Counted from the first letter of the stretch, positions 5,091 through 50,761 are shown. The stretch is 64,000 nucleotides of DNA from a bacterium (GCA_030648955.1 JAUSHB010000011.1:7366-71365), one strand, 5' to 3'. Numbers and translations: made by a program. The notes: generated by a model not told the origin, from the letters alone.

Positions 5091-5141
5091 GATAGATTTT
5101 TAAGAGGTGGAACGACTATTAAAATCGCCATACTCATTATT

Positions 5142-5495: not shown

Positions 5496-5546
5496 AGTGA
5501 TTTTATAAATTCTATTAAATGCATGTCCTGATACATGATGATATAT

Positions 5547-6767: not shown

Positions 6768-6889
6768 GAAATTAAATTTAAAATTAAAAAATCAAAATTA
6801 AAAATGACAAAGCAGAAACAAAAAGATAAGACGGCTCCTTTGTTTCTTTGTTTTTAAATTTTGCACTGTAATTTTGCATTTGTTATATA

Positions 6890-14100: not shown

Positions 14101-14304
14101 AGGATTAAGAATGAGTCGTTCGACTTCTTCGGCCGCCATACCTGGACTTTCCGCAAAGATCGTGACTGTTGGCTTGTTGATATCGGGAAGAATATCCACT
14201 TTCATGGTAGCAATACTCCACAACCCTGCGATGGTCGTAATTCCAGCTATGACAAGCACGGTGATTTTATTTCCAAGGGACCAAGAAATGATTTTGTTAA
14301 ACAT
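11194..14304 (-). CDS. cusA: Heavy-metal efflux RND transporter, CusA/CzcA (HME-RND) family
   Basis: About 1036 aa. The N-terminus MFNKIISWSLGNKITVLVIAGITT...PDINKPTVTIFAESPGMAAEEVERLILNPIE carries the HME-RND signature region, followed by 12 TM helices and large periplasmic loops. I chose Met24 of the ORF as the start (ATG at 14302-14304) because it avoids overlap with the upstream gene and gives a canonical N-terminus. Confidence 0.9.
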   Translation of the reverse strand: MFNKIISWSLGNKITVLVIAGITTIAGLWSIATMKVDILPDINKPTVTIFAESPGMAAEEVERLILNPIEAVIAGAPGVERIRSNASFAQATVNMEFAWGSDTLRNRQVVQERLAQAILPFGVKPILGPSTSLLGEIMWIGISSSDSKITPMELRTLANWTIRPALLKTEGVANVLVMGGDVREWQININAERMRRYGIMLDDIRKNVENALVNKSGGLLTEGGKEYSIRILIAPTEAADLRDISIGQNPMDESPVRLGDIAAVIEGPSIIRGSGAIDGKSGVILRIIRQPDAQTLTVTDAIDTTFRSLSASLPSGVELHPNLFRQENFIRAGLKNVEGALRDGTILVILVLVIFLMNGRVTIITLAAIPLSILITAIVFKVFGFSINVMTLGGVAVAVGELVDDAIVGVENVFRRLRLWISSDKKEDYEGVILSASTEVRNSIVYATILVAVVFIPIFFMPGIEGRLLVALGAAYLVSIVASMVVSLTVTPVLSALLLNDKSLAGHEKETKIVQKIKERITPWIYWCITNVKIIGSITVIALFLTVGMYFFAGKEGIPPFNEGSMVVMLFLPPGTALSTTNEYVIKLENALLQVKGVRQVSNIAGRASADPHGGSANSSEVQIALKPGFEGERTRIFVDIQAVLGRFGDADFSLGQPITHRVEMLLSGVRAPIVVKVFGDDPIKMENAAKQVLAELKKQKGIENPRIQQNTVVPEFRIYVDRNRLAEYGLSSGEVARDIEMGLMGDTLGQVRLGAASVDVVVRYDAESKGTMASLRDLALPFVGAKSLGSVGDIRVEGGLNSQDHEGGKRVLVVSANYQGTDVVGAVGGAKAALLSQKLPIGVTLSFEGNYKSQKESSRQLALVFIVGIAMIFGVLYHAFKSIPIVLLVMTNIPTVLIGGMIGVWLTGGSVNLAHLVGFISLAGIVSRNGIMLIGRSLSLVQKEGLPFIPETIVKATLDRVVPVLMTSLVTALALIPLIISGGDPGKEMLNPLAVVIFGGLISSTIISLFLTPALFYRFGKKTVLQEKEMVSSGF

Positions 14305-14314
14305 ATATTTTGGA

Positions 14315-27702: not shown

Positions 27703-28719
27703 TTAGTTGATGTGCCAGCATAAGTAAATGATGTAGTTGTGCCGCTGGTCGGCCAATGCGGTGATAATACTTGTGCCCAATCCATTTTGGTCGCTCGTCT
27801 TATTTTTGGGTTGCCCAATACCGTTGTCGGTAACACTAAGGGTCCACATCGATTCCAGCGCCTCGTACATAACAAGAATCTTACCCATGCGATTATTGGG
27901 GAAAGCATGTTTTATTGCATTGATGACAAGTTCTGTGGTAACAAGACCAAGGCTTATCGCTACTTCTGATGTCACCGTACCCGGTGTAGCTCTTACTTCT
28001 AGTGATATCGGTTTCCGCCCGCCGATCATAGATCGCGCAAGACTTCCACACAGAGCTTCTAAATATGCGGCGACAGGTATTTCCGCCCCAAAATCTGTTG
28101 GATCAAGCTGATGCTGAACCGTTGCAATCGACATAATACGTTCGTGGGCATCTTGTAAGTGTAGCCGTGTTTCTTCGGATTCCACGATTCCTGCCTTAAT
28201 CAGAAGGATGCTCGCAATTAACTGAAGACTGTTGGCGACACGATGGCGCATTTCTTTAAGGAGGAGATCTTTTTGGATGATAAGTTTTTCTTTCTCGGAT
28301 TCGATGATTCGCTGTCTGGTTATATCAAAAATTGAAATGAGAATCTTCTTCCGTCTGTTTTGGTAGTGTACTTCGCGGGCATTTATTGATAAGGTACGCG
28401 TGCCAAGGGTTGGAAAATTATGTTCAATCTCATATTCTTCGATTATCGCATGTTCGGGGATGATTTTTTCTAAAAGCTCTTTGAATTTAGGAATATCCCA
28501 CTGGCCATTGTTGATTTTATAAAACAATTGACAGTATGTTTTTTCATGATCTCCCCCATAGGTATCATAGAATGAGCGACTAGCGGTAATTACTTGCAAG
28601 TCTTTATCAAGGATGATCAATGGCTCATGAATCGTGTCTATGATTGCTCGACTAAGAATATGTCCATCATTAGGGTCATTAAGGGGATCAGGTATTCTTC
28701 TATCCTTTTCTGTTTTCAT
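27703..28719 (-). CDS. Sensor histidine kinase, PAS + HisKA_2/HWE-type
   Basis: PAS-like N-terminus (IIDTIHEPLIILDKDLQVITASRSF). H-box 'LLKEMRHRVANSLQLI', typical of HisKA_2. C-terminal ATPase region (LVTTELVINAIKHAF...DNGIG). No TM helix, so it is cytoplasmic. Confidence 0.8.
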   Translation of the reverse strand: MKTEKDRRIPDPLNDPNDGHILSRAIIDTIHEPLIILDKDLQVITASRSFYDTYGGDHEKTYCQLFYKINNGQWDIPKFKELLEKIIPEHAIIEEYEIEHNFPTLGTRTLSINAREVHYQNRRKKILISIFDITRQRIIESEKEKLIIQKDLLLKEMRHRVANSLQLIASILLIKAGIVESEETRLHLQDAHERIMSIATVQHQLDPTDFGAEIPVAAYLEALCGSLARSMIGGRKPISLEVRATPGTVTSEVAISLGLVTTELVINAIKHAFPNNRMGKILVMYEALESMWTLSVTDNGIGQPKNKTSDQNGLGTSIITALADQRHNYIIYLCWHIN

Positions 28720-29454: not shown

Positions 29455-31209
29455 TTATAGTGCCGTAACCGTGAAGTTCTTGAACTTGATATTCGCATTA
29501 TCGCCACGGATACCGACCTTGCCCGGATTCCTAATGGGGGCGCCGCCGATCGAGCCATTATCGATCGCGCGCGCAAGGAGCTTGCCATTTTCGAATAATT
29601 CAATGGTGACCGATCCGTCCGTGTTGTTTTTTACAGTCGCTTTCACATGTTGCCATGTTCCATACGACACCGGGTGCGCATTGAATGTACTCAAATTGTA
29701 ATATGTTCCGCCGTTAGATGTTCCGCCCGGTACTTTCTTCTTAATTGCAACCGTATTGTCGCGCCGATTTACCGATGCATAATACAGACTTTCCTCACTC
29801 TGGTAGCGCAAAAACACGTGTACGCCATCCCAATCAACCGCCGGCGTGTTCCCCGTTGATACGAGCCCCTGGTTCAACAGATCGAATTCAACCACAGTAT
29901 TTCCGAAATCCGCCCGCTTTGTAGTAAGTCGAAAGACCGCGGAATTATTCCCACTAGTCGAGAGAGCGTTTGGAGCGACCGTGTTAGGTACACCAGTCCA
30001 ACCAGCTCCCCCTTGGGCAAAGAGTGAACCGCTCGTCATTTCCCAAACACTTGATTTTACACTTGATGCATTTGTCGGATTCCAGTAAGCGTATTCATTC
30101 GTGAGTAGTCTGTCTGCATATTGACTGAATGCATCAGCAAAGAGTACTCGAGTATTGCTTGTAGAAATGACTGGCGAGGTAGTTGGTGTGGTTGTGGTTG
30201 CAATCGTAGGCACTGCAGGTAATTGGGCACTTATTCCCAACACAAGTGTGGTTGTTGTGAGTTTGAAATTATCAAACTCTGTATCTGCAAAATCACTTTG
30301 GATACCCACAAGCCCGGTCGCCGTGATCGGAGCTCCGTATATACTCGGGTCATCGATTGCTTCTGTTGCCAATTGCCATACGCCGGCGTTTCCTTGGTCA
30401 ACGTACAGTGAGAGCTTTGGGTTGCCCGCGGCGCTGGTTGATACATCCATGCGTAACCCAATCCATGTGCCTTTAGGAATAAGGTTAGGATTTTTAGTTG
30501 CATCATAGGTGCCGCTAAATATTTTTTTATATGCGAGCGTCTGATACACGCCATTCACTTTTTTCTTTATGACAACTCCCCCATCAGAACGAATACCGGC
30601 GTAATAATACGTGTTGTCATTAACATAGCGCGCGAGGAGCGATACACCGTTCCATGGATGGCGGTTCTGTGTGTTAGAAAGATTATCCTTATTTTCTTTT
30701 ACGTAGACCTGGACGGAGGGGTTGAGTTCCTGCTGGCGCAGAAACATTTGGAAAACATTTTGCGGGTGAATACCAAGGTCGGTTGCCACGGGATTTTTCA
30801 TCGCATAGAGCTTATTCATTGGATTACTTGCCGGAAGATTACCTGAAGTTGTTTTTCCAGTTCCGCTTGAAATAATGAGACTGCCGCCGGATGCAACCCA
30901 CCAATATGGACTAGAGCTCGATATCTGATCTGTAGTTTCATTAAGCGTTCCATCCACATGAAAATCATATGAAAATGGTAGCGTGACCGACTTACTCATC
31001 ACAGCAAAAGATATTTTTGGTATCCCACCAAGAAAAAGTGCTGTGATGCCGGCAAGAAACACTGCCCAAAGTACCATGTTACGCATTCGCGTGGTTATTT
31101 CTGTCTCCGCCGCTATAGAAGAAGTGGTGATGCTTGATGTAGTATATGGTTTGTTTTTTGTTAATCTATCCGATGCATGCGTTACGCCTGGATAATAATT
31201 ATTGTTCAT
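29455..31209 (-). CDS. Secreted protein with two ConA-like lectin/glucanase (DUF1080 / 3-keto-disaccharide-hydrolase-like) domains
   Basis: Signal anchor. Internal duplication (LLARYVNDNTYYYAGIRSDGGVVIKKKVNGVY versus VFLRYQSEESLYYASVNRRDNTVAIKKKVPGG). The C-terminus ...GKVGIRGDNANIKFKNFTVTAL matches the DUF1080 ending (G.IGLQ.H...V.FRNI.I). Confidence 0.6.
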   Translation of the reverse strand: MNNNYYPGVTHASDRLTKNKPYTTSSITTSSIAAETEITTRMRNMVLWAVFLAGITALFLGGIPKISFAVMSKSVTLPFSYDFHVDGTLNETTDQISSSSPYWWVASGGSLIISSGTGKTTSGNLPASNPMNKLYAMKNPVATDLGIHPQNVFQMFLRQQELNPSVQVYVKENKDNLSNTQNRHPWNGVSLLARYVNDNTYYYAGIRSDGGVVIKKKVNGVYQTLAYKKIFSGTYDATKNPNLIPKGTWIGLRMDVSTSAAGNPKLSLYVDQGNAGVWQLATEAIDDPSIYGAPITATGLVGIQSDFADTEFDNFKLTTTTLVLGISAQLPAVPTIATTTTPTTSPVISTSNTRVLFADAFSQYADRLLTNEYAYWNPTNASSVKSSVWEMTSGSLFAQGGAGWTGVPNTVAPNALSTSGNNSAVFRLTTKRADFGNTVVEFDLLNQGLVSTGNTPAVDWDGVHVFLRYQSEESLYYASVNRRDNTVAIKKKVPGGTSNGGTYYNLSTFNAHPVSYGTWQHVKATVKNNTDGSVTIELFENGKLLARAIDNGSIGGAPIRNPGKVGIRGDNANIKFKNFTVTAL

Positions 31210-31576
31210 TTCTTTTTTTTATGGTCTCGTCCAGGCTCAACTAATATCGTAGAAATTTCGCGTAGTTTTATTTGAGCTATACTGAGCGTTTTGATAATAT
31301 TCCCACATCGACAGTGCATGAGAACAAAAAAAGTGTATCAGTATTAATTTTTGGTCGCAAGAAAAAAATCATGCATTTTCATGCACAATACACATCTTCA
31401 TGAACATGGGCAAAATAACTTTGAAACCTTAACTACATTTTCATAAAGAAAAGATGAAGTTACTTGTAAGTTGTCCACAGATTAAAATGAGACCAACCTG
31501 CCTAATACAGAAAATTGCAAAAACATCGCGCAGTAATAAGCACTGTAGTGTTTTTAAGAGTATATAAAAATATCTA

Positions 31577-33271
31577 CTAGAGTAAATCTTTTACCCCTTG
31601 TTCTATGGTGATTACGGGTGCGTTTTTTTGGATTAAATAATCAATAATTTGATTAAACGTGTCCGGGGTTGTACTGTATTGCTCCCCACTCGTATCAATT
31701 TGATGAAATCCCAAGATAAGCCATTCTTTATTTGCAAGAGCGGTATCGATCCATGTTTTGACATCTGCTACAGTAGTATTTACTTCAACGCCCATTCGTG
31801 GAAGCGTAAAGGGATTTTCTGTTTGTTGTGCATAATATTTGCCGGTTCCCCGTGCATTAGCAAGTCCGGCATTTTTAACAATCCCAACGACTGCATCATT
31901 ATGTTCACCGTACGGATATGCAAATGAAAGTATGGGACCCACATTGAACGCAAGAAGATCCTGGCGTGAACCCTGTATCTCACTTTGTTGTTGCGCTAAT
32001 GTTAGGCTTGGCAGGTGCGCATGCGTTCGTGTATGCGCACCGATCTCATGTCCGTTGTTGTATATATCAATTACTTGAGCAATACTCATAAATCCGGGAT
32101 ATCCATAATTAGAAAGTCTTTGACTCACAATATAGAACACCCCCTTAAGTCCGGAGCTATTCAGTTTTGGAATCGCGTTCTCGTATTGAGAGAGCGTGCC
32201 GTCGTCAAATGTCAAAGACACTGCACCTGTGGTGAAAATTCCCTTCGGGGTCGACAGTAACTGAAGTGACGTATTATCAATGGTCAGTGTACCAACCTCC
32301 GCGATCAAATGAAAAACGGTAACCGTGCTCACATTTGCAGGGACACTTAATTGAGCGGATGCGGCGGTAAACACGTTGGTTGGAGGAAGTATTTTTAAAT
32401 CTACGTAGAAAAAAGTTCCATCGGTATACTGATATTGGACAGTAAGCTTACTGGTTGCCGTTGAAATATATTGATCAGAATATACATACACTCCCGGTGA
32501 AAGCGCACGCGGGGTAAAATACCACTTAGCATCTCCACTGGTGTAGTTTGTGATCGCTACCTGTGCCGCGCGACTCCCCGAAACTCCGGGAACAGGATAG
32601 GTGAAAGTGCGCGTACTGCTTCCCCACGAACCACTGTTCCAATAGGCAGGCTTATTTGGTACATCACTACTTTCAAGATCGGGATTCAATATCAAATTGG
32701 GCGGTCCTGTTGGCAGAGGAGGAGTTATTTCATTCAATGAATAATCGTCCGTCGTGAGCACCCCCACTTGATTGATGAGATGAAAGATGGTCAGCGAAAC
32801 AGCGTTTTGAGGAACAATAAATTTAATGGTTGCATTTTGATACGCCGAATTTGGACTTAATAATAAAATGTCTTTATACATATAACCGCCTCCTGAAAGT
32901 GCGTACCGAGCAGTAATAATACTGGGAACATTTGACTGGAAATAATCAGAAAATTGATATGTGTGCCCGCTTTGAACCGCCACATCACCAAAAAACCATT
33001 TAGCATCTCCCCCCGTGTAAGTGGTAATGCTTACTTTTGCCGCATACGCATCATCGTATCCGGTGACAGGATATGAAAACACGCGCGTATTGTTTCCATA
33101 TCCACCCTTACTCCATCCGGTCGGAGATATGGGAGAAGATTTAAACGATGGATTCCCAATTAAGTTTGGCCCAACAGTTTGCGCGTGGACAGGAAGTGCA
33201 AACAAGAATGCTCCACCAAGTGTGAATATAACCAAAGAGATTATCTTTCTGTATTGTTCTGTTTTTGCCAT
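31577..33271 (-). CDS. Polysaccharide deacetylase (CE4, NodB-homology) with two N-terminal carbohydrate-binding modules (CBM4/9-like)
   Basis: Signal peptide. Two repeats beginning NLIGNPSFKSSPISPTGWSKGGYG / NLILNPDLESSDVPNKPAYWNSGSWG, in CBM_4_9 style. CE4 motifs VSLTFDDGTLS and GHEIGAHTRTHAHLP. Confidence 0.8.
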   Translation of the reverse strand: MAKTEQYRKIISLVIFTLGGAFLFALPVHAQTVGPNLIGNPSFKSSPISPTGWSKGGYGNNTRVFSYPVTGYDDAYAAKVSITTYTGGDAKWFFGDVAVQSGHTYQFSDYFQSNVPSIITARYALSGGGYMYKDILLLSPNSAYQNATIKFIVPQNAVSLTIFHLINQVGVLTTDDYSLNEITPPLPTGPPNLILNPDLESSDVPNKPAYWNSGSWGSSTRTFTYPVPGVSGSRAAQVAITNYTSGDAKWYFTPRALSPGVYVYSDQYISTATSKLTVQYQYTDGTFFYVDLKILPPTNVFTAASAQLSVPANVSTVTVFHLIAEVGTLTIDNTSLQLLSTPKGIFTTGAVSLTFDDGTLSQYENAIPKLNSSGLKGVFYIVSQRLSNYGYPGFMSIAQVIDIYNNGHEIGAHTRTHAHLPSLTLAQQQSEIQGSRQDLLAFNVGPILSFAYPYGEHNDAVVGIVKNAGLANARGTGKYYAQQTENPFTLPRMGVEVNTTVADVKTWIDTALANKEWLILGFHQIDTSGEQYSTTPDTFNQIIDYLIQKNAPVITIEQGVKDLL

Positions 33272-33273
33272 AA

Positions 33274-34137
33274 TTATAGGGTGGTTATCTTGTAATTTTT
33301 AAACTCTACGTCCATAAAATCGGTGCGGATACCGATATTCCCCGCGTGTGTGAGCATCACACCGTTCGGAAGTCGACTTGGATCATCGATCACGGTAAGT
33401 ACCGTCTGCCATGTATTATGACGATAAATACCCAATTGGATCATCACCCTTGCATCAGTCTCGTTTTTAATATTCATCGAGAGACCGATCCACTCACCTA
33501 TAGGCAATACGTTTGGATTCTTTGTGCGATCGTAATCCGTCCCATTATCAAGCGTTACCGTCCCGAGCGTTTCATATAGTCCATTAAGTTTTCGTTTTAT
33601 GACCGCCGTTCCATCAACACGCACGCCCGCATAATACAAATTATCTGCATTTACATAACGCCCGAGAAATAAGACTCCATTTGATCCATTTCGCTCAGGG
33701 GATTTACTTGTCTGATATGATTTGATGTTGAAATAAAATTCTCCATAAAAGTCTTGGCGTGGAACCTTATTGATGAGCCTGAAAATGTTTTGCGGATATG
33801 ACCCATTTTCGGTATCAATAGGATCAGACAAGGCATATAACTGTCTCCACCGAGAACCGTGATAGATCGGACCCATGTGCGTTTGCCCAATTCCGTTATG
33901 TACCGAAAACGACGCGCCTGAATCAACCCACCAGCATACATCACTGCTCGCATTCATACTCTCCGCTTCTTCAAGAGAAAGTTCTAAGGGGAATGATTGG
34001 CATGTTGATGATGTACTATCGGCAAGGGTTATATTTTTATTATTAGTGATAGTTTGTACAACCACATATGTAATAAACACACTAAGGATCAAAAAACTTC
34101 CTGTAATGATTGATGTTCTATGTCTAAGGCTATTCAT
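33274..34137 (-). CDS. Secreted ConA-like (DUF1080-type) domain protein
   Basis: TM/signal anchor. VLFLGRYVNADNLYYAGVRVDGTAVIKRKLNGLY ... GNIGIRTDFMDVEFKNYKITTL. Paralogous to the domains in 29455-31209. Confidence 0.6.
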   Translation of the reverse strand: MNSLRHRTSIITGSFLILSVFITYVVVQTITNNKNITLADSTSSTCQSFPLELSLEEAESMNASSDVCWWVDSGASFSVHNGIGQTHMGPIYHGSRWRQLYALSDPIDTENGSYPQNIFRLINKVPRQDFYGEFYFNIKSYQTSKSPERNGSNGVLFLGRYVNADNLYYAGVRVDGTAVIKRKLNGLYETLGTVTLDNGTDYDRTKNPNVLPIGEWIGLSMNIKNETDARVMIQLGIYRHNTWQTVLTVIDDPSRLPNGVMLTHAGNIGIRTDFMDVEFKNYKITTL

Positions 34138-34160
34138 AACGTTTATAAAAAATATGCTTA

Positions 34161-35720
34161 TTACTTCTCGATCGCTCTCGATGTTGTTTTGACTGTACTT
34201 GTGCTAGAAAAAGCAATGGACTCAACGAGCACACGGGTAACCTCTAATGCGCTTGTTCCATTCACGTGATCCCATACTTTAATCCCAATTCCACCACGAG
34301 AAAGGTGCTCATCTAGGAATTCGGTTTTTGCAAGAACATGTCCATTAATAAGACATTCCACGGTTCTCCCATACACACGAATTGATGCAATAAAACTATT
34401 TTGCTTCAGAAGATTTTCATTAGTGACCTCATTCCCTTTTATAACATTCGTTACTCCCCCCACCGTCTCTTCAACGTGGACAAGGTCATTTCCAAAATTG
34501 CATGCAGCATAATTTTCATCGTCTTGATATCGCGCCCAAAGATACAGATTGCTACCGCCATGCCAAAGAAGATTGGTACTAAATTGATAATCCTTCCACT
34601 CGTGTGAACCGTCAAGAATAATTACACTTCCCGTACCCCCCGGATTCGCCCGCACCATGAGATGACTGTTCTCAAATGCCATTTCACCCCACAGAGTGTT
34701 AATCCACCCGTCATCATTGGTTAATTTTGGATTAAACGGGATAGGCTTTGCTTCACCTTGATGTATTGTGGAAAGAAGATTTTTACCAGACCATTCTGGT
34801 AAGACACTAATACGCTTTACGAGATAATGTCCGTTTTGAGACGGAACCGGATAGTTTTGCGTAAAACGTTTAGTGGTAAAAAACTGAAAGAACGACATGG
34901 CGTATGCTTTTTCAGCAATACTCATGACTGATCGCTGTGATATATTAGTTGATTCTTGTCCTAGTTCCCCAAAGGGAAAAGCAAAGGCGATGATTGACTT
35001 TCCTAAGAGTCCCTCAAGACCTTCCTTGGATCCGACAATCTCGTTTCCAAGTTCACTTTGTGGAACTGTTTCAAGGTTACGATGGGTACGCGTATGTGAT
35101 TCTATTTCCCACCTTCCGCTTTTCTCCATTGCTTGGAGCTCACTTTTTGTCAAATAATAATTATTGGCGTCGAGTAATGAGAATTTTTCGATAGCAAACA
35201 TGACGGCATTGAAATGAAGCGCTCGGAGAATCGGGTCAACGGGATAGTATGTGTCCTTTCGTCCATCGTCAAACGTAAGAAGAAATGACTTATTGGGAAG
35301 TTTTTTCTCTCCTTTTAAAAATGAATAAAAATCATCGATTGTGACTGTTTGATAACCAGCATTCTTAAGTGTAGTCATCTGGTCAATAAATGTGTCGAGA
35401 TCAATGTTGGAACCATCCGTCGTGTTTAAAATTCCGTGATACATAAGTACGGGTACTGATTCGGCAAAATCACTTGAACGTGTTCCCGATTCAGACATAG
35501 AGGATGCTCCGTGTGTCTCAAAAACAGAACCGACCACGGAAGCCGTGTTTTCAAGAGTTTGCGCAAACACAAACATATGTGATTTAAAATAATACGCTTT
35601 GTAGTATGGCGCTGAATATGTATAAGCCTGAAAACCAAAAACAGCAATGCCATACACCAAGCAGACCATGGCAAATATAGTAAGCTTTTTATTAAATATC
35701 TTTTTGTGTGTGAAATACAT
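34161..35720 (-). CDS. Polysaccharide deacetylase (CE4) fused to a C-terminal ConA-like (DUF1080-type) domain
   Basis: TM anchor. CE4 motifs SFLLTFDDGRKD and WEIESHTRTHRNL. C-terminal NLYLWARYQDDENYAACNFG...GGIGIKVWDHVNGTSALEVTRVLV resembles the lectin-like domains of the neighbouring genes. Confidence 0.75.
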   Translation of the reverse strand: MYFTHKKIFNKKLTIFAMVCLVYGIAVFGFQAYTYSAPYYKAYYFKSHMFVFAQTLENTASVVGSVFETHGASSMSESGTRSSDFAESVPVLMYHGILNTTDGSNIDLDTFIDQMTTLKNAGYQTVTIDDFYSFLKGEKKLPNKSFLLTFDDGRKDTYYPVDPILRALHFNAVMFAIEKFSLLDANNYYLTKSELQAMEKSGRWEIESHTRTHRNLETVPQSELGNEIVGSKEGLEGLLGKSIIAFAFPFGELGQESTNISQRSVMSIAEKAYAMSFFQFFTTKRFTQNYPVPSQNGHYLVKRISVLPEWSGKNLLSTIHQGEAKPIPFNPKLTNDDGWINTLWGEMAFENSHLMVRANPGGTGSVIILDGSHEWKDYQFSTNLLWHGGSNLYLWARYQDDENYAACNFGNDLVHVEETVGGVTNVIKGNEVTNENLLKQNSFIASIRVYGRTVECLINGHVLAKTEFLDEHLSRGGIGIKVWDHVNGTSALEVTRVLVESIAFSSTSTVKTTSRAIEK

Positions 35721-35777
35721 GGTGTTGGCAATGATGATTTAGTAAGTAAAAATACTCATGCGAAGCGCTTTGGGATC

Positions 35778-37151
35778 TTACCGTGTTCCCCATTTTGCAT
35801 CGCGAATTTTTAAAATGGCGTATGGTAACTGCCAAATCATCACGAGCGTATAGAATGTCGCAAATGCAACACCATAAATCCACTTTCGATCTTTGGTATA
35901 AACGTAGTAATAAAGCCCGTAAATAACGGCCATGAGAACAAGCCCGAGCACATAATATATAGGTAATCGATCTCTCATGATCGGATACCAAATAAAAGCC
36001 CGCGCAACAATAATAGGAGCGAGAAGTGGCAAAATAACACCGAGATAAAATGAAATACTCATAATAATATTTTTACGCCACATAAAAGTCCCCGCGACAA
36101 GGCTTTCGCGAGTCCATGATTTTTTCCAGCGTAACTGCTGTCGCATAAAGACCCCAAATGTATCAGGAACAAATGTGTGTGCGATAACATCAGGAGCAAA
36201 AATTGCATCATACCCGTAATAAAGCATATAGTTGGTGAGACTCCGATCATCGCCATAGGTGCATTTCACACCAAGAAAACGTTGGTTTTCCCATGCATTG
36301 AGAAAGGGTAAAAGATATGACCGACGATATGCCGAACAGCATCCAGAACAGCATGTTACCGCACCAAAAAGTGCTTCTGCTGCTTTGTACGCCTTAAATG
36401 CAACATAGTAGCGAACTGCCTGCATCTTGGTGAGTATATTTGTTTCTGCATTAGCAACATACGCATGTCCAGCAACAGCGCCAATCTTAGGATGACTGAA
36501 ATACTTAACTACTTTTCTGGCCGCATCGGGCTCAACAAAACTATCAGAATCGATAAAGAAAATAAGTTCTTTTGATGAACGTTTGACACACTCGGCCATT
36601 CCTTCACGTTTTCCACGATTGTCTTGCCAATCAATAACCTCTACATGAATCCCCATTGTCCGAGCCTCTTCTTTTGCCGCATACATTTCTAGGAGTGTAT
36701 TGTCGGTTGAACCGTCATTGACCGCGATGATATCGAATTTATTTTTGGGATAATCCGAAGCGGCAATACGAAGGATTGTTTCTTTGATATTCTCTCCTTC
36801 GTTTTTAGCGGGCACACCAAATGAGATAGTCGGCTCATATTCGTCAACACCTTCAAAATCAAGCGGTTTGGGGTTGTAAAAATACGCCAGAGCAAAACGC
36901 GATATGATATAGAGCGACACTGCAATACTATAGCCGGCAAATAAGATGTTGTTATCCAACTGTTTAATGGTGACAAATTTGATCAAAATAACCACATAAA
37001 TCAGGAAAAAGAATATTGCCCATATATGTATGTCGCGTTTCTTTGTTATCTTGCCGGGCGTGTGAATCTTTTGAAAGATAGCCTCGTTGGGAGGAATGCT
37101 CTGCGATTCTATGTTTTCTTGCGTGATTGATGCTACTTTCATAATGATCAA
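35778..37151 (-). CDS. Processive family-2 glycosyltransferase, hyaluronan-synthase/NodC/chitin-synthase-like
   Basis: AVNDGSTDNT (DxD), FIDSDSF, CCSGCCSAYRR, YGDDRSLTNYML (compare G(D/E)DRHLT of HasA/NodC) and QQLRW (QxxRW processivity motif). TM helices lie at both ends. Confidence 0.85.
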   Translation of the reverse strand: MIIMKVASITQENIESQSIPPNEAIFQKIHTPGKITKKRDIHIWAIFFFLIYVVILIKFVTIKQLDNNILFAGYSIAVSLYIISRFALAYFYNPKPLDFEGVDEYEPTISFGVPAKNEGENIKETILRIAASDYPKNKFDIIAVNDGSTDNTLLEMYAAKEEARTMGIHVEVIDWQDNRGKREGMAECVKRSSKELIFFIDSDSFVEPDAARKVVKYFSHPKIGAVAGHAYVANAETNILTKMQAVRYYVAFKAYKAAEALFGAVTCCSGCCSAYRRSYLLPFLNAWENQRFLGVKCTYGDDRSLTNYMLYYGYDAIFAPDVIAHTFVPDTFGVFMRQQLRWKKSWTRESLVAGTFMWRKNIIMSISFYLGVILPLLAPIIVARAFIWYPIMRDRLPIYYVLGLVLMAVIYGLYYYVYTKDRKWIYGVAFATFYTLVMIWQLPYAILKIRDAKWGTR

Positions 37152-37282
37152 AATTTATATTAATAATTAGTTTTTTATTTTGTCTTTAAATCTCAAATAA
37201 TCCAGTCAATGATCCGTTGTTATTTTTATACCCTATGTGGTATATGCAAAACGTGAACCGTGTAATTGCAAAAGAAATACAC

Positions 37283-38608
37283 TCACCTTCCAATACCGGC
37301 ATAGAGAACGTTTGACATGAGAAATTTTTCTTTACTGAGACAATTTCTGCCATCGACAATAACCGAAACACCGTGCTCCTCGAGACGGCGCGGACTAAGT
37401 TCTTGCACAAACTCTTTGTGAGCAGTTGCCACGATAACCGCCGTTGCCCCCGAAAGTGCTTCATTCAAATTTTTTACATCGGAAGATCTAATGGCATACG
37501 GATCATACGACACGGGATGAGCACCTTTTGCCTTAAGCGCTTCAATAATTTTGTGTGAGGGACTTTCTCGGACATCATCAACACCTGGTTTGTACGACAT
37601 ACCCAGTACTGCGACCTTTGAACCGCGGATCACAAATCCTTTGGCACGAAGAGCTTCTTCGGTGATTTCTACGGTAAACATCGGCATATGGTTATTGATA
37701 CGGCGCGCCATTGATAAAAACTGATGATTGAAGCCGTTTTCTTTTCCACAATTGATAAGATAGTACGGATCAACGGGAATACAGTGGCCACCAACCCCGC
37801 ATCCCGGAAAATGTGGCATAAATGAAAACGGTTTTGTTGCAGCACCATTAATGACGTTCATGACATCGATGCCCATTTTTCTAAATGACATCGCAAGTTC
37901 GTTTACAAATGCAATATTTACGTCACGAAAAGAATTTTCTACTACTTTTACCGCCTCCGCTTCTTTAAGTGAACCCATTGGTTTGACGCGAGCACTCAAA
38001 ATTGATTCATAAAATCTTACGGTCTGCGCAAGCCCACGTTCAGTGGAACTACCAACAACACGGGGAATTGACTCCACATTCCACACAGTATCTCCGGGGT
38101 TAATCCGCTCCGGACAATGTGAAATTTCAAACTCAACCCCACAAGCAAATCCAGACCCTTCTTCAAGAATAGGCATGATAATATCTTCGGAAACACCAGG
38201 ATTGACCGTTGATTCAATGATGACCAACGTCCCGCGTTTCATGTGTGGGGCGATGCTTCTTCCAGCACTCGTGAGCGGTTCAAGATTCGGCATGTAATCT
38301 TCATACACCGGCGTTGGAACACATATCACAATGATCGTTGCTTCTGCTACTCGTGCGGATTCGGTGTCAAACTTCATAGTAGTCTTTTTAAGCTCCCTGG
38401 TGATTCCTTCGTCAATAAACGGTGATGTTTTTTTATGAAGCAATTCGATTTTATGAGCATCATGATCAATGCCGATAACACGATATCCCTTTCGTGCGCA
38501 TAAAAGCGCAAGGGGTAATCCAACATATCCAAGACCTACAACAGCGACTGTTTCTTTGGAAACTTTTTTGGGGGTTCTTTTTGCTTGTGAATGGCTCTTC
38601 TTTTTCAT
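37283..38608 (-). CDS. UDP-N-acetyl-hexosamine 6-dehydrogenase (WecC/WbpA/TviB clade of the UDP-glucose/GDP-mannose dehydrogenase family)
   Basis: Rossmann motif VAVVGLGYVGLPLALL. Catalytic region GCGVGGHCIPVDPYYL: 'GGHCI.VDPYYL' is typical of UDP-ManNAc/UDP-GlcNAc dehydrogenases, whereas UDP-glucose dehydrogenases have GGSCF. Confidence 0.85.
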   Translation of the reverse strand: MKKKSHSQAKRTPKKVSKETVAVVGLGYVGLPLALLCARKGYRVIGIDHDAHKIELLHKKTSPFIDEGITRELKKTTMKFDTESARVAEATIIVICVPTPVYEDYMPNLEPLTSAGRSIAPHMKRGTLVIIESTVNPGVSEDIIMPILEEGSGFACGVEFEISHCPERINPGDTVWNVESIPRVVGSSTERGLAQTVRFYESILSARVKPMGSLKEAEAVKVVENSFRDVNIAFVNELAMSFRKMGIDVMNVINGAATKPFSFMPHFPGCGVGGHCIPVDPYYLINCGKENGFNHQFLSMARRINNHMPMFTVEITEEALRAKGFVIRGSKVAVLGMSYKPGVDDVRESPSHKIIEALKAKGAHPVSYDPYAIRSSDVKNLNEALSGATAVIVATAHKEFVQELSPRRLEEHGVSVIVDGRNCLSKEKFLMSNVLYAGIGR

Positions 38609-39188: not shown

Positions 39189-39872
39189 ATGAGAATTTTA
39201 ATTGTTGAGGATGACGAAAAATTAGCAGCCCGTCTCAAGAAAGGTCTTGAAAATAAAGGGTTCGCGGTTGACCTTGTGACCGATGGCCTTAAGGCAGTAA
39301 CACGAATTAGTTTATACCGTACGATATATGAAGTGATCGTATTAGACCTCATGCTTCCTGAAAAAGATGGTTTTGACGTGTGTATTGAAGTACGAAGGCT
39401 TGGAATTAAAATACCTATTCTGGTGCTTACCGCTCGTCAGGATACCGAAGACAAAGTACGAGCGCTTGATAGCGGCGCTGATGATTATCTCGTAAAGCCG
39501 TTTTCAATAGAAGAACTTAGCGCGAGAATTCGCGCACTCACAAGACGTCCCGAAAATCAACTTCCGGTAGTGCTTCAGGTTGGTCCGATCGTACTTCATG
39601 TTAATACCAAAAAGGTGTATTGTAACAATAAGGAGATTTCTCTTACCCTTAAAGAGTTCAGCATCCTTGAATATATGATGCGACACCCCGACCAGGTCCT
39701 TAATCGGGAACAAATCATGGACCATATTTGGGGATTTGATTTCAATTCATTTAGCAACGTGGTTGATGTTCATGTGAAAAATCTACGGAAAAAACTAACC
39801 TATGGAAAAAATAAACCTGTCATCGAAACCGTCTGGGGATTCGGCTATCGACTCAATAAAGACGTTTCCTAG
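39189..39872 (+). CDS. OmpR-family response regulator (REC + winged-helix)
   Basis: MRILIVEDDEKLA...VLDLMLPEKDGFDVC...LVLTAR...DDYLVKPFSIEEL, then a Trans_reg_C domain (VWGFGYRL). Confidence 0.9.
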   Translation: MRILIVEDDEKLAARLKKGLENKGFAVDLVTDGLKAVTRISLYRTIYEVIVLDLMLPEKDGFDVCIEVRRLGIKIPILVLTARQDTEDKVRALDSGADDYLVKPFSIEELSARIRALTRRPENQLPVVLQVGPIVLHVNTKKVYCNNKEISLTLKEFSILEYMMRHPDQVLNREQIMDHIWGFDFNSFSNVVDVHVKNLRKKLTYGKNKPVIETVWGFGYRLNKDVS

Positions 39873-40281
39873 CATCATTCTCCGGACACAGAAACAAATA
39901 AGAGCATGCGTATATGCTGGCTCTGCCCTAATTGTTGTTTTTTTAACAGAAGGAGGGATACTATTTTTCTTGTCGGTAAAATATGAGACGCTACCCTTTT
40001 TGTTTTTGCTTACGTTGCTCGGATTGATCGGTAGTGTCGCAATAATAGCATGGTCACATCAAGCAAGACGAGTAATTAACGAGTTGCTGTTCCTTGCTGA
40101 AGCACGAGGAAAGCAAGAACGCTCAACGTTGGCGCATGATATACGAAATATCCTCGCGATTATTCAAGCGGATGTAGAAATTGCCCTCATGGGTGAGACG
40201 TCCGGAGAGGAGTTGCGTAAAACACTCAAGCAAATTATGACGGAAACGGATGAAATTAATTCAAAATTAAACGAAGTTTAG
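39802..40281 (+). CDS. Truncated sensor kinase: two TM helices + HisKA dimerisation/H-box only (no ATPase domain); possible gene remnant or split kinase
   Basis: The H-box is LAHDIRNILAIIQADVEIAL. No HATPase_c domain. The ORF overlaps the response-regulator 3' end by about 70 nt. A TTG preceded by GAAGGAGGG lies at about 39925-39950 and may be the real start. Confidence 0.45.
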   Translation: MEKINLSSKPSGDSAIDSIKTFPSIILRTQKQIRACVYAGSALIVVFLTEGGILFFLSVKYETLPFLFLLTLLGLIGSVAIIAWSHQARRVINELLFLAEARGKQERSTLAHDIRNILAIIQADVEIALMGETSGEELRKTLKQIMTETDEINSKLNEV

Positions 40282-40317
40282 CCCTCGTTTAATTACCATA
40301 CAATTCATGTATCACAT

Positions 40318-42414
40318 ATGACCAATCGTATTCTCTATATAGTAAAAGTATTGGCGCTAGCGCTCATTTATTTTGTTACTGCAAAAATAGGATTGAATTT
40401 CCATCCTATTTCCAGTTTTTCCACACTTGTTTGGTTACCAAGCGGAATTGCACTTGCCGCGCTTCTTCTCTATGGATTCGAATTATGGCCCGGCATCATG
40501 ATTGGTGCTTTCATGGCAAATATTCTTATTGGCGGAACATTGCCGATAGTACTTTCCATTTCGCTGGGAAACACCCTTGAGGCATTGGCGGGAGTATACA
40601 TCCTACGTCGTTATATTAAACTTGATTACTCACTTGAGCGCTTGCGTGACAGTATCGGTTTTCTTTTGGTTGCGCTTGTTGTACCGATTATTGGTGCAAC
40701 AATAGGAGTAAGTACTTTGTGGGTTACCGAGATAGTTACTCAGCCAACAATCATATCGGTATGGATTACTTGGTGGCTTAGTGGAGTGCTGGGAACTCTC
40801 ACGATCACCCCATTTCTCATATGCTGGCTCTCTAAACCACTCCCCTGGAGAACTGCGTCTATCGAAGTGATCGTGGAGACAACTTCGCTTTTTGCGCTTC
40901 TTGTTGGCATTGATGTTATGGTCTTTTTGACCCCTTTCACACAATTGGACTCTTTCTCGACAATTTACCTCGTTATTGTGCCACTTATGTGGGCAGCAAT
41001 ACGTATGGGACCATTGGGTATTACACTTTCAATATTTATAACCTCATGCATAGGATCATTGGCTGTTTTATTAAACTACGGGACATTTTCTCAAGCAGAT
41101 ATGCTTGCAAGGCTTTTTACAACAGAAATATTTTTAGCATTCATCGCGTTAATTTTTCTACCCTTCACTTCGATTGTAGCTGAAGAAAAAAACACAGCAG
41201 CCATGTTGAGAGAAAATGTTAAGCGTCTTCGTGAGGCATTACAGAAAATCAGCTCCGAAGATAATGCTAAAAACGAGTTTTTGGCAATCCTTGCACATGA
41301 GCTTCGAAATCCCCTCTCGCCAGTGATCACCTCTCTTGAACTTATGAATATAAAAGTTGCGGAAATCAACCGTCCTGATATTTTACAAATCATTAAAACA
41401 TCTGAAACCCATGTTCGTACCATGGTTCACCTCCTTGATGACCTCTTAGATATTTCTCGCATCTCTCGTAGGAAATTTAAATTGGAAAAAGAGACCGTTG
41501 AGTTGCTGTCCATTATTAATCACGCGCAAGAAACCGTTGATGCTTTTTTTGTTTCCCGAAATCATCACTTGTCTATTTCTATGCCCAAGAAACTCATTTG
41601 GATATCCGTGGATCCGGTTCGCATCGAGCAAATATTGAACAACATCCTTCATAATTCGGCAAAATACACCCCCATGGGAGGACATATTGAACTTTTGGTT
41701 ACACATAATGATGAAAAAGAAGAAGTGATAATTCGTATACGAGATAATGGGGTTGGGATTGCTCCCGATATGATACAAAAAATTTTTGAACCCTTTGTTC
41801 AAAAAAACTACACCAGGGATTCGCGGGTAAGCACTGGGCTTGGTATCGGTCTCGTCCTTACCAAACGATTAGTAGAGCTCCATGGCGGAACCATACAAGC
41901 AATGAGCGAGGGATTGGGGAAAGGAAGTGAGTTCACTGTGACCTTGCCTGGTTCTCAAAATATCCAATTGCAAATGGGAACCCCCACAAAAGAACGTCGA
42001 GGTGTGCGAAGAAAACCTTACTTTACGTTTATACCATCAAAAAAAATAGAAGTACGGTCTCCTATTCTTATTGTTGACGATAATAAAGACGCAGCTGATG
42101 GACTCAAAATGCTCCTTGAATATGCGGGGTACAAAGCAGTGGTCGCCTATAGTGGCGAGGAAACGTTTGAGGTTGTTCGAAACGTTCACCCCAAGATTAT
42201 TATCCTCGATATCGGTCTGCCAGACATGAGCGGCTATGTTGTTGCGGAGCTTTTACGAAAAGAGTTTGGTGATTCGCTTACATTGATTGCCCTGACGGGA
42301 TACGGGCAAGACAGAGATAGATTTGAGGCAAAAAAATCAGGCTTTAACTATCACATGACAAAACCAATCAGGATCGACGATCTTAAAAGTATACTCACTG
42401 ACAATAAGGATTAA
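40318..42414 (+). CDS. Hybrid sensor histidine kinase: MASE1 membrane sensor + HisKA + HATPase_c + C-terminal receiver
   Basis: About 8 TM helices at the N-terminus in MASE1 style (WLPSGIALAALLLYG...). H-box FLAILAHELRNPLSPV. N/G boxes (NNILHNSAKYT, DNGVGI, GLGIGL). REC domain (ILIVDDNKDAADG...LDIGLPDMSG...KP). Confidence 0.85.
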   Translation: MTNRILYIVKVLALALIYFVTAKIGLNFHPISSFSTLVWLPSGIALAALLLYGFELWPGIMIGAFMANILIGGTLPIVLSISLGNTLEALAGVYILRRYIKLDYSLERLRDSIGFLLVALVVPIIGATIGVSTLWVTEIVTQPTIISVWITWWLSGVLGTLTITPFLICWLSKPLPWRTASIEVIVETTSLFALLVGIDVMVFLTPFTQLDSFSTIYLVIVPLMWAAIRMGPLGITLSIFITSCIGSLAVLLNYGTFSQADMLARLFTTEIFLAFIALIFLPFTSIVAEEKNTAAMLRENVKRLREALQKISSEDNAKNEFLAILAHELRNPLSPVITSLELMNIKVAEINRPDILQIIKTSETHVRTMVHLLDDLLDISRISRRKFKLEKETVELLSIINHAQETVDAFFVSRNHHLSISMPKKLIWISVDPVRIEQILNNILHNSAKYTPMGGHIELLVTHNDEKEEVIIRIRDNGVGIAPDMIQKIFEPFVQKNYTRDSRVSTGLGIGLVLTKRLVELHGGTIQAMSEGLGKGSEFTVTLPGSQNIQLQMGTPTKERRGVRRKPYFTFIPSKKIEVRSPILIVDDNKDAADGLKMLLEYAGYKAVVAYSGEETFEVVRNVHPKIIILDIGLPDMSGYVVAELLRKEFGDSLTLIALTGYGQDRDRFEAKKSGFNYHMTKPIRIDDLKSILTDNKD

Positions 42415-48840: not shown

Positions 48841-50364
48841 TTATAACCCGAGTGATTTTATGAGTGCACGAGTTTTTGCGCCGTAGTATCCTGCGGTAGG
48901 AGTAATCTTCTTTGCTTTTTGAAAACTCACAAGCGCTGCTTGTGTTGCTCCGCCAAATTTTGTCGTCTCTTTTCCCGAAGAACCCGCACCAGTTTTTGAA
49001 ACAATAAATCCAATACTATTCAAGAATTTCTGAAGCGTGCGCACGTCTTCCCCTGTCGTGCCCAACTTGAGGTCACGCGTCGGCATCTTCCATATTTGAG
49101 AAGCCGGAGGCAATGGGGCAGTTTGGGCGTTTACATCACTTGCTGCTTTATTCGCCACACGCGTTGCGTTGTATTTGTAATTGGTGAGCACATCCCAGAG
49201 GAGCGGATCCTGACCCCCGTCAATTTTAAATATCGCAATTCCCCGCAAACCATATTTCACCGCAAGCTCTGCCTTCTGCTTAATAGACTCCGCATCGCTC
49301 CATGAAAGCACGCGAGTTGCGTTAGGAAGCGGAATAGGCGGCTCGGGCGATTGGGATGCCGGGAAGGTCAAGAAGAGCTCACCTGCGTTGTTTCGCACGG
49401 GTTGCATTCCAAGCTTTGTCGCAATGCCCGTTGCGTACCCCGGATTGAACGACCAGAGTTGTGAGTATTGCATTTTCCCGCTTCCGTTCTGCGCGGGAAA
49501 CATGTCGTGCTCGTACCCATAGGTCGCGACTCCAATCACAAGTTTTTCTTTTTTAATATCTTGGAGCGCCAGCTTCACCACTTTATCCACCCAATCCGCG
49601 TCTGCAACCGGAACATAGGGATCTCCTTTTGCATCATTCAATTTAAGATCGTACCTTCCTTGGTCGTAGGTCATAAGACGCACACTATCGCAATATTGAT
49701 TGATTGCGGTAAAGTCGTTTGCGTACTCAATATCTTTAGGAATTGATTCTGGGGACGAGTAACGCGAGTCAAGCGGCGTGCGCGCTTCGATGGTGCAGGT
49801 GATCCATTTGTTGTATCCGATCGCCTCCTTAAGGTCTTTGAGAAACAGTGAGAAGTAGGGTCGCGTGCGCGCATATTTGCCTTCGTAATCAATATCAATA
49901 CCGTCTGCACCGTTCCCAAAAACTTCTTTAATAATAGAACTAATGTGCGCCTTGCGTTTTTCCGAGTCGCGGAAAATTTCATCCATGGCATCTGCATTCG
50001 CCCACATCACTGCGGGAACAAACTTCACGCCCGCGTCCTTCGCACGGGCGCGAAGCAGTACCCATTCGTCATTACCAAGCGACGAAGCTTGGTAGAGCGT
50101 ACCGTCTTGCTTCACGGTATACATGAATGGGTTCACCTCAGTGAATAGATCAAGGTGAGGCAAAATGCTTTCCACCCCAAGTTTTGAGCGCCAATACGGA
50201 ATCCATCCGGATATCTCGAGAGAACTGCCTGCCTGCGCCAAGCCTGTCGCGGCAGGCAGGCTTGCTTCTGTTGTGGTGGTTTGCGCATACACAAAACCGC
50301 CACTCGGAAGAATAAGCGCGAGAAGGATAAAAAGAAACACGGATTTTTTAAATACAGTATGCAT
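48841..50364 (-). CDS. Secreted GH18-family glycosyl hydrolase (chitinase-like / peptidoglycan hydrolase-like) with C-terminal peptidoglycan-binding domain
   Basis: Signal peptide (the MHTVFKKSVFLFILLALILP start is ATG at 50362-50364). GH18 catalytic motif GADGIDIDYE. C-terminal PG_binding_1-like LGTTGEDVRTLQKFLNSIGF...GGATQAALVSFQ. Confidence 0.8.
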   Translation of the reverse strand: MHTVFKKSVFLFILLALILPSGGFVYAQTTTTEASLPAATGLAQAGSSLEISGWIPYWRSKLGVESILPHLDLFTEVNPFMYTVKQDGTLYQASSLGNDEWVLLRARAKDAGVKFVPAVMWANADAMDEIFRDSEKRKAHISSIIKEVFGNGADGIDIDYEGKYARTRPYFSLFLKDLKEAIGYNKWITCTIEARTPLDSRYSSPESIPKDIEYANDFTAINQYCDSVRLMTYDQGRYDLKLNDAKGDPYVPVADADWVDKVVKLALQDIKKEKLVIGVATYGYEHDMFPAQNGSGKMQYSQLWSFNPGYATGIATKLGMQPVRNNAGELFLTFPASQSPEPPIPLPNATRVLSWSDAESIKQKAELAVKYGLRGIAIFKIDGGQDPLLWDVLTNYKYNATRVANKAASDVNAQTAPLPPASQIWKMPTRDLKLGTTGEDVRTLQKFLNSIGFIVSKTGAGSSGKETTKFGGATQAALVSFQKAKKITPTAGYYGAKTRALIKSLGL

Positions 50365-50503
50365 ATATATGCTATATAAGACGCTCATTATATCATAATC
50401 ATACACCCTTGCCTGTTGTTGTGGATGAAACTCCTTGCGGTGTTTTAAGATTATGGTAGAACAATAACAGACCACATAGCGCAGACGCGCGAGGATACGA
50501 ACA

Positions 50504-50761
50504 ATGAAGCTAATTGATCGGTATATAGAGCACGTTGCATCTGAGCCGATTATGAATAAACACAGTCTATTCTGGGGAACCAGCTGCATTTTTCTGGGTG
50601 TGGTACATCTTTTTTTTGCGGGGCTTGTTGCAATCTATCCTGCTGTTTTTGATGACCCGCATTCAGTATTTGCCCTTCTGCTCGCTCTTATGGGAGCTTT
50701 TTGGATTCTTGTCGGAAAACGCCTTTTAGAAAAATGGCTAGTGTTCTTCTTTAAGAAGTAG
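50504..50761 (+). CDS. Small membrane protein (85 aa)
   Basis: Two TM helices. Followed by a hairpin terminator. Confidence 0.4.
   Translation: MKLIDRYIEHVASEPIMNKHSLFWGTSCIFLGVVHLFFAGLVAIYPAVFDDPHSVFALLLALMGAFWILVGKRLLEKWLVFFFKK

Follow-up and report, generated by a model that had tools for sequence, protein, structure and literature searches.

A conserved synthase-deacetylase operon of candidate phyla radiation bacteria that may direct the synthesis of a partly de-N-acetylated, chitin-like exopolysaccharide

The DNA analysed here is a stretch of 64,000 nucleotides from a bacterial assembly (GCA_030648955.1, JAUSHB010000011.1:7366-71365), called the window below, in which six co-directional, non-overlapping open reading frames (ORFs) on the minus strand fill positions 29455-38608 (Table 1). 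We propose that this locus encodes a synthase-dependent exopolysaccharide system whose product would be a chitin-like polymer based on N-acetylglucosamine (GlcNAc), containing GlcNAc-uronic acid where a dehydrogenase gene is present and partly de-N-acetylated outside the cell. We infer this chemistry from the genes and put the probability of the reading at about 0.55; what the analysis shows directly is which genes the locus contains, to which families and folds their products belong and that the synteny is conserved. A sequence-only reading of the window had described six co-oriented minus-strand genes and quoted the motifs GGHCIPVDPYYL, GDDRSLT, QQLRW and CCSGCCSAYRR. ORF calling found the genes where that reading had placed them, and all four motifs are present in the translations. 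The gaps between successive genes measure 131, 57, 23, 2 and 367 bp. Translation of the synthase probably starts at an ATG at 37142, three codons past the TTG, where its homologues begin. The nearest named genome is a metagenome-assembled genome (MAG) of Candidatus Taylorbacteria with a synthase 76% identical to that of the window, and the window genome is probably that of a Paceibacteria-type organism of the candidate phyla radiation (CPR). A contig from a public run (L001) carries the same genes and is 99% identical to the window locus. The synthase of the window is not itself on record as an exact sequence, and the 99%-identical P0001 was used in its place.

The locus is widely conserved. 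More than 4000 relatives of the synthase are present in the databases, with 60-76% identity across CPR candidate phyla. From a scan restricted to one genome per species 322 relatives emerged, the best 80 of which were kept together with 10-kb flanks, and conservation was counted both by tblastn at the domain level and by an unbiased clustering of all ORFs in the loci. Across these 80 species-level genomes the gene order was (dehydrogenase)-synthase-CE4::ConA-ConA protein, where CE4 stands for a deacetylase domain of carbohydrate esterase family 4 and ConA for a concanavalin A-like domain. The clustering yielded exactly four recurrent families: the synthase, the CE4 fusion (63 loci), the ConA-like protein of the 287-aa type (43 loci) and the dehydrogenase (36 loci). 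Among the CPR loci with enough flanking sequence, the CE4 fusion lay directly downstream of the synthase in 35 of 43 and the 287-aa type was present in 35 of 40. The dehydrogenase is facultative, as it lay directly upstream of the synthase in only 20 of 41, and uronic acid may thus not be obligatory in the product. The combination of genes had been regarded as unusual, and least to be expected in a CPR genome. It is on the contrary a conserved and widespread CPR operon, found in the same order in dozens of genomes.

Four CPR loci contain an additional protein of about 420-530 aa without a Pfam match, which is not encoded in the window. Its gene lies between those for the synthase and the CE4 protein in L017 (8809-10281), L024 and L025; in L049 it is on the opposite strand and lies downstream of the CE4 gene. 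Synthases 52-68% identical to that of the window were also found on four contigs whose records are labelled Nanoarchaeota or Woesearchaeota (L007, L010, L026 and L050). On the first three a downstream gene for a DUF2334/CE4-like protein of about 330 aa replaces the CE4::ConA fusion and a gene of the 287-aa type is nearby; L050 has the synthase only. The presence of these synthases on DPANN-binned contigs reflects either gene transfer between CPR and DPANN or mis-binning.

The synthase, a member of glycosyltransferase family 2 (GT2), matched the Pfam families Glycos_transf_2, Chitin_synth_2 and Glyco_tranf_2_3 with about 90 bits each. Its closest solved structures are two hyaluronan synthases (HAS), those of Xenopus (XlHAS1) and Chlorovirus (CvHAS), with E values of about 5e-30 for the single sequence and 1.7e-43 for the family profile. 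Hydrophobic segments (43-61, 69-87, 362-380 and 396-414) lie on both flanks of the glycosyltransferase domain. The motifs DSDS (D-x-D), GDDRSLTN and QQLRWKKSW (QxxRW) could be aligned with NodC, HasA, CvHAS and XlHAS1, and the protein ends in WGTR. A neighbour-joining tree was built from 276 columns; NodC, HasA of pXO1 and PgaC came from annotated plasmids, and structure alignments supplied the segments of CvHAS and XlHAS1. The window synthase and its relatives formed a separate clade in this tree (100% bootstrap), sister to the group of HAS and NodC (93%). The synthase does not fall within the characterised HAS enzymes and rhizobial NodC likewise stands in a different clade; identity was 29-31% to NodC, pXO1 HasA, CvHAS and XlHAS1 alike. 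Judged by its sequence, the synthase is a processive-type member of the HAS/NodC superfamily that belongs to neither HAS nor NodC. Its earlier placement with these processive enzymes and not with simple polyprenol-phosphate glycosyltransferases is thus borne out by the HAS structures, by a NodC model score of 200 bits and by the tree. A Frankia gene (L054) considered as a canonical nodC was rejected as such; in the tree it joins the members of the synthase family from Rhodococcus and Mycobacterium instead.

The dehydrogenase contains the N-terminal, central and C-terminal UDPG_MGDP_dh domains (143, 102 and 81 bits) and matches TIGR03026 with 404 bits. Among solved structures the best scores were obtained with 4r16 (252 bits), a Pyrococcus protein deposited as a hypothetical dehydrogenase for UDP-N-acetylmannosaminuronic acid (UDP-ManNAcA), with Cap5O (221 bits) and with an N-acetylgalactosaminuronic acid (GalNAcA) dehydrogenase of Methanosarcina (3g79; 214 bits). 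Structures of UDP-glucose dehydrogenases reached at most 166 bits, and the streptococcal HasB 52. The neighbour-joining tree for this protein (401 columns) contained a TviB-like protein from a Shigella sonnei plasmid, presumably WbgT and labelled as such, together with WecC and Ugd of Escherichia coli, AglM, a HasB-like protein of pXO1 and a Ralstonia enzyme annotated as UDP-ManNAc dehydrogenase. The CPR dehydrogenases formed one clade (100%) which was sister to WbgT (94%), while WecC was excluded with 98% and Ugd, HasB and AglM lay outside with 100%. The catalytic motif tells the same story: GGHCIPVDPYYL resembles the GGHCIGVDPYYL of the TviB-like protein, whereas WecC has GGHCIAVDPWFI and UDP-glucose dehydrogenases have GG(S/Y)C(F/L)PKD. 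The earlier assignment to the enzymes making N-acetylhexosamine (HexNAc) uronic acids, outside the Ugd clade, agrees with the GGHC motif, the TviB-type sister and the structure ranking, except that WecC itself is not among the close relatives. By sequence, the product is most likely a UDP-HexNAc uronic acid, with UDP-N-acetylglucosaminuronic acid (UDP-GlcNAcA) the likeliest candidate. Because the TviB/WecC equivalog models NF011729, NF008286 and NF040825 gave 223, 223 and 289 bits and did not reach their cut-offs of 592, 459 and 750, we infer the substrate, UDP-GlcNAc, and with it the specificity of the enzyme.

Both CE4 proteins matched Polysacc_deac_1 (PF01522; gathering threshold 23.1 bits), the 519-aa protein with 74 and the 564-aa protein with 82 bits, and both contain the motifs TFDDG and HTRTH. 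The 519-aa protein also has the N-terminal YH motif of the PgaB/IcaB type. Its description as a CE4 deacetylase fused to a ConA-like domain proved correct, as the C-terminus is confidently ConA-like in the structure model. The description of the 564-aa protein as a CE4 deacetylase with two CBM4/9-like carbohydrate-binding modules (CBMs) stands for the deacetylase, but the CBM4/9 label is weaker than claimed: CBM_4_9 (PF02018) gave 14-16 bits (E 0.015-0.066), below the gathering threshold of 25.9 bits. Both modules lie N-terminally and are tandem copies of each other (43% identity). The HfsH model NF050820 scored 87 bits on this protein, far below its cut-off of 400. Homologues of the CBM-CE4 protein were found in only 12-15 of 84 loci, and it is an accessory component of the system. 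Each of the four proteins encoded downstream of the synthase has one N-terminal hydrophobic segment, which is consistent with an extracytoplasmic location.

Relatives outside the CPR offer a clue to the nature of the polymer. In Holophaga, Acidobacteria, Nitrospirae, Desulfobacterales and some Proteobacteria the synthase gene is accompanied by genes for a CE4 protein, for a giant protein of 1270-1980 aa that combines many tetratricopeptide repeats (TPR) with a CE4 domain, and then for a member of glycoside hydrolase family 18 (GH18). A GH18 gene was present in the same operon in eight of these diderm relatives, with the catalytic motif DGLDVDYE. On a plasmid of Paenibacillus the order is CE4, PilZ-synthase fusion, CE4, GH18. 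The conserved pairing of synthase and CE4 protein, together with relatives that have the TPR/CE4 giant, GH18 or the PilZ-synthase fusion, is what would be expected of synthase-dependent secretion. In synthase-dependent systems such as Pga, Bcs, Alg and Pel the co-encoded hydrolase fits the polymer, and GH18 enzymes cut beta-1,4-GlcNAc linkages by substrate-assisted catalysis. The occurrence of GH18 in the operons of the relatives, taken with this specificity, makes a chitin-like GlcNAc polymer the most likely product. A Vi-antigen-like polymer, which had also been suggested, is disfavoured, since the GH18 genes of the non-CPR relatives speak for a chitin-like beta-1,4-GlcNAc backbone.

The synthase with the N-terminal PilZ domain (27 bits) is encoded on a Paenibacillus cellulositrophicus plasmid (L085, 7380-9257). 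Cellulose synthase BcsA is known to be controlled by cyclic di-GMP, and by analogy the PilZ domain suggests such control of the synthase family in Firmicutes. In the window itself a GH18 domain (75.7 bits, DGIDIDYE) was found about 10 kb from the locus, in a 582-aa protein with a C-terminal PG_binding_1 domain (48841-50589, minus strand). This protein may act on the polymer as a chitinase-type hydrolase or, alternatively, hydrolyse the cell wall. As the cognate hydrolase of the system it was rejected: it shares 21-25% identity with the operon-linked GH18 proteins, and no GH18 gene lies near the synthase in the other CPR loci.

The strongest competitor of our proposal holds that the product is a plain beta-1,4-GlcNAc homopolymer, that is partly deacetylated chitin or chitosan, and that the dehydrogenase serves another glycan or is loosely associated. 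About half of the CPR loci indeed lack the dehydrogenase but keep the synthase, the CE4 protein and the ConA-like protein. The GH18 linked in the non-CPR relatives also fits this reading, and most of those relatives have no linked dehydrogenase. When present, however, the dehydrogenase gene is always immediately upstream of the synthase gene and on the same strand. Linkage of a GGHC-class dehydrogenase to the synthase was moreover found in three phyla (CPR, Actinobacteria and Holophaga), and it would be difficult to account for linkage so close and so recurrent unless the genes shared a pathway. This linkage suggests that the polymer takes up HexNAc-uronic acid as well in those loci that have the dehydrogenase, and we consider the homopolymer unlikely, though a serious contender.

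A second possibility is a pathway of the NodC/NodB kind, leading to short, deacetylated chitooligosaccharide signals and not to a polymer. The similarities are real: size and architecture of the synthase, which ends at its last motif as NodC does, membership in a superfamily using UDP-GlcNAc, the pairing of synthase and CE4 protein as in nodBC, and NodC (TIGR04242) as the top NCBIfam model. The score of 200.7 bits, however, is far from the equivalog cut-off of 550, and the GDDR and terminal WGTR of the synthase family are replaced by GEDR and WLSR in NodC. The CE4 protein is of the PgaB/IcaB type, anchored outside the membrane, and the NodB model matched with an E value of 6e-4 only. No NodA homologue or nodIJ genes were seen beside the synthase in the window or on annotated related contigs, and the TPR/CE4 giant of the diderm relatives is typical of polymer-secretion systems. 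A signal of this kind thus appears improbable.

The least probable explanation is a genuine hyaluronan operon (glucuronic acid (GlcA)-GlcNAc) equivalent to hasA-hasB, which would fit the HAS structures as best matches and the shared features of class I HAS (CvHAS, vertebrate HAS, streptococcal and pXO1 HasA with hasB), namely a membrane GT2 with N- and C-terminal transmembrane helices, the D-x-D, GDDR, QxxRW and WGTR motifs, the last being also the C-terminus of pXO1 HasA, and an adjacent nucleotide-sugar dehydrogenase, but which is contradicted by the separate clade with about 30% identity to any HAS, by a dehydrogenase motif and grouping of the TviB-like and not the Ugd, HasB or AglM type, by extracellular CE4 and lectin-fold partners, the CE4 protein being obligatory and without a role in hyaluronan synthesis, and by the GH18 of the relatives, which does not cut hyaluronan. 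The Joint Genome Institute label 'hyaluronan synthase', an automated name, implies such an operon, and the evidence above suggests that it is wrong for this synthase. It is the sole trace of the system in the accessible literature, where no study of it was found; it appears as an annotation in Parcubacteria MAGs from Amazon soil (PMC6064768). A paper on a 'bacterial chitin synthase' (PMC5122149) concerns unrelated fungal-type genes, and one on an Actinoplanes exopolysaccharide is unrelated to this system.

Comparison with two other groups of systems helps to define what is particular to the locus. Like the poly-N-acetylglucosamine (PNAG) systems PgaABCD and IcaADBC, it would use a processive GT2 to make a GlcNAc polymer and a PgaB/IcaB-type CE4 protein with a second carbohydrate-handling domain to deacetylate it in part outside the membrane, and the giant protein of the diderm relatives joins TPR, as in PgaA, with CE4, as in PgaB. 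It differs in that the synthase shares only 18.9% identity with E. coli PgaC over the catalytic region and scores 125 bits with the PgaC/IcaA model TIGR03937 (curated cut-off 422), there is no PgaD or IcaD, a ConA-like domain takes the place of GH153, and the GH18 of the relatives points to a beta-1,4 and not a beta-1,6 linkage. With the Vi antigen and other HexNAc-uronic polymers (TviB/TviC, WbpA/WbpO, Cap5O) the locus shares the GGHC dehydrogenase, a near-identical catalytic motif and the predicted HexNAc-uronic donor. Those polymers are built by non-processive transferases and exported by ABC or Wzy routes, whereas the locus has a HAS/NodC-type synthase and no TviC-type epimerase or TviE-type transferase. 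A synthase combined with an extracellular deacetylase is the logic common to the PNAG, Pel and holdfast systems. As far as sequences allow such a comparison, the new elements would be the uncharacterised synthase clade, the association of a TviB-type dehydrogenase with a processive synthase, and ConA-fold partners without a Pfam family in place of GH153 or GH18.

High-confidence structure models of the C-terminus of the 519-aa protein and of the 287-aa protein show a ConA-like beta-sandwich, CBM66 being the best or second-best structural match. The lectin-like fold postulated for these domains is thereby confirmed, but their assignment to the DUF1080 type is not. PF06439 (DUF1080) was reached at threshold by none of them: the CE4-fused domain gave no match, none of 30 members of the 287-aa family, which also differs in this respect from the CBM66/DUF1080 modules, matched even at E<=1, and the C-terminal domain of the 584-aa protein was the only domain of the locus to come close (24.7-25.8 bits; threshold 26.8). 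The 287-aa protein had no Pfam or NCBIfam match at all. Three paralogous lectin-like domains, one of them fused to a deacetylase, had been assumed. Paralogy with the 287-aa protein is clear for the N-terminal domain of the 584-aa protein (38% identity, E 1e-53) and more distant for its C-terminal domain (28%, E 3e-14), but the CE4-fused domain is not detectably paralogous to the other three; in a profile-profile comparison of the 287-aa and CE4-fusion families the probability was 5%, and sequence homology between them was not established. Longer CE4 proteins with extra ConA-like domains do occur (P0270 and L068). The C-terminal domain of the 584-aa protein, which is of a DUF1080-related type, has counterparts in Actinobacteria: with 42-46% identity (E 1e-45 to 1e-60) it matches the products of genes next to the synthase in Rhodococcus, Mycobacterium and Pseudonocardiaceae, and in an Acidimicrobiia locus (L068) this type of domain is fused to CE4.

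The 287-aa family is a separate, compact family tied to the operon and outside Pfam DUF1080. Its profile found only 800 clusters among 1.84 billion representatives, some with two or three copies or fusions to other domains. Members outside the CPR were seen in Methylococcales (L077) and Acidobacteriota (L071), in both at most about 6 kb from a related synthase, and P0234 of Methylocaldum is a further member. Since the family occurs beside the synthase outside the CPR as well, it is tied to the synthase and not to the CPR as such. The protein is predicted to bind or to process the polymer. A separate question is whether the ConA-like proteins are not passive lectins but glycoside hydrolases, lyases or transglycosylases that replace GH18 and trim the polymer or cross-link it to the wall. 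Of the 30 positions that are invariant in the 287-aa family many carry a charge, and the invariant polar residues include E57, Q116, N117, R120, R149, R173, D175, K183, Y188, R271, D273 and D276. The CPR loci lack the GH18 seen in the relatives, and the C-terminal domain of the 584-aa protein has a weak match to PF14099 (Polysacc_lyase). An enzymatic role is a definite possibility on these grounds, albeit not the one we favour.

Our proposals on the substrates and the linkage, on what the ConA-like proteins do and on the biology can be combined into the following model. In the cytoplasm the TviB-type dehydrogenase would oxidise UDP-GlcNAc to the HexNAc uronic acid donor UDP-GlcNAcA. The membrane GT2 would polymerise UDP-GlcNAc to a beta-linked chain, probably using the uronic-acid donor too where the dehydrogenase is present, and would extrude the chain through its own transmembrane channel, as its relatives do. 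Outside, the membrane-anchored PgaB/IcaB-type CE4 protein would remove some of the N-acetyl groups while its fused ConA-like module holds the chain. At the surface the anchored ConA-like proteins of 287 and 584 aa may serve to bind the polymer, to keep it in place or to trim it, and the secreted CBM-CE4 protein would supply a second, accessory deacetylase. The model predicts a surface polymer that is chitin-like, has lost part of its N-acetyl groups and may be acidic or zwitterionic; it would plausibly serve an episymbiotic CPR cell as an adhesive or protective coat. Its production may be under the control of the neighbouring two-component system.

Several points weigh against this model. The synthase clade has no characterised member, and its product cannot be read from phylogeny because it is equidistant from NodC, which makes chitin oligomers, and HAS, which makes GlcA-GlcNAc. 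Both trees are neighbour-joining trees with small reference sets. The choice of donor could not be deduced from active-site residues either: in CvHAS, K177 and R341 hold the GlcA carboxylate (PMC12987647), and their equivalents are kept here but also in NodC, so that they do not discriminate. The linkage of GH18 is confined to the non-CPR relatives, and the GH18 protein of the window is distant both in place and in sequence. The absence of the dehydrogenase near about half of the CPR synthases may mean another pathway or an optional uronic acid, and the charged invariant residues of the 287-aa family could point to an enzyme instead of a binding module.

Table 1. Genes of the exopolysaccharide locus and of the adjacent two-component system (positions in the window)
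Feature	Position	Strand	Size	Basis or remark
Nucleotide-sugar 6-dehydrogenase, GGHC class (TviB/WbpA-like)	37283-38608	-	441 aa	Pfam, TIGR03026, neighbour-joining tree
Membrane-embedded GT2 synthase, HAS/NodC/chitin-synthase superfamily	35778-37151	-	457 aa	TTG start; Pfam, solved structures, tree
Membrane-anchored PgaB/IcaB-type CE4 de-N-acetylase (~85-330) with C-terminal ConA-like beta-sandwich (~335-505)	34161-35720	-	519 aa	
N-terminally anchored ConA-like protein	33274-34137	-	287 aa	Compact family without Pfam match
Secreted protein with two tandem CBM4/9-like modules followed by HfsH-like CE4 deacetylase	31577-33271	-	564 aa	
Anchored protein with two ConA-like domains and Thr/Pro-rich linker between them	29455-31209	-	584 aa	
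OmpR-type response regulator	39189-39872	+		Divergent from operon; Pfam families as recorded for L001
HisKA fragment, truncated ORF overlapping regulator	39802-40281	+		Pfam families as recorded for L001
MASE1 hybrid histidine kinase	40318-42414	+		Pfam families as recorded for L001

The two-component genes at 39189-42414 are candidate regulators of the operon, and we assign them to the system tentatively. A response regulator of the OmpR-type family lies within 10 kb of the synthase in 13 of 47 CPR loci and a member of the kinase family in nine loci; the arrangement of regulator and MASE1 kinase is also present in L002. On the other flank of the locus a HisKA_2 kinase is encoded at 27703-28719 on the minus strand. 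Promoter-like sites across the locus were rarer than in shuffled sequence and terminator-like sites slightly more frequent, and neither were informative. Further away on the minus strand, positions 11194-15997 encode a full-length AcrB-type RND (resistance-nodulation-division) transporter (1059 aa, 748 bits) beside an HlyD-like adaptor, which is unexpected in a CPR genome with a presumed single membrane. The minus-strand genes at 3102-8116 form a run of the alpha-glucan type, with products assigned to the glycoside hydrolase families GH15 (662 aa) and GH57 (406 aa) and a GT4/GT5 transferase resembling starch synthase (408 aa). Their presence hints at a metabolism of storage glucan or trehalose that is separate from the exopolysaccharide locus.

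CPR bacteria account for much of the diversity of bacteria and live attached to other cells, and to our knowledge almost none of their surface chemistry has been defined experimentally. The operon is among the few multi-gene envelope modules kept across many CPR lineages, and it comes with a concrete predicted product, a chitinase-sensitive, partly deacetylated and possibly uronic-acid-containing polymer. It also provides the first functional context for a lectin-fold family without a Pfam model, and a third clade beside HAS and NodC may help to understand the choice of substrate in the superfamily and to make new glycosaminoglycan-like polymers. More speculatively, and with considerable doubt, Patescibacteria, some Actinobacteria and a few others might share an unrecognised class of polymer ('chitouronan'), made by a third HAS/NodC branch from UDP-GlcNAc and UDP-GlcNAcA, zwitterionic after de-N-acetylation, handled by new ConA-fold enzymes or receptors and serving the CPR as host-attachment glue or coat. 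Partly deacetylated amino-sugar polymers such as PNAG, Pel, the Caulobacter holdfast and fungal galactosaminogalactan are classic adhesins, which makes the locus a direct candidate for the material by which CPR cells attach to their hosts.

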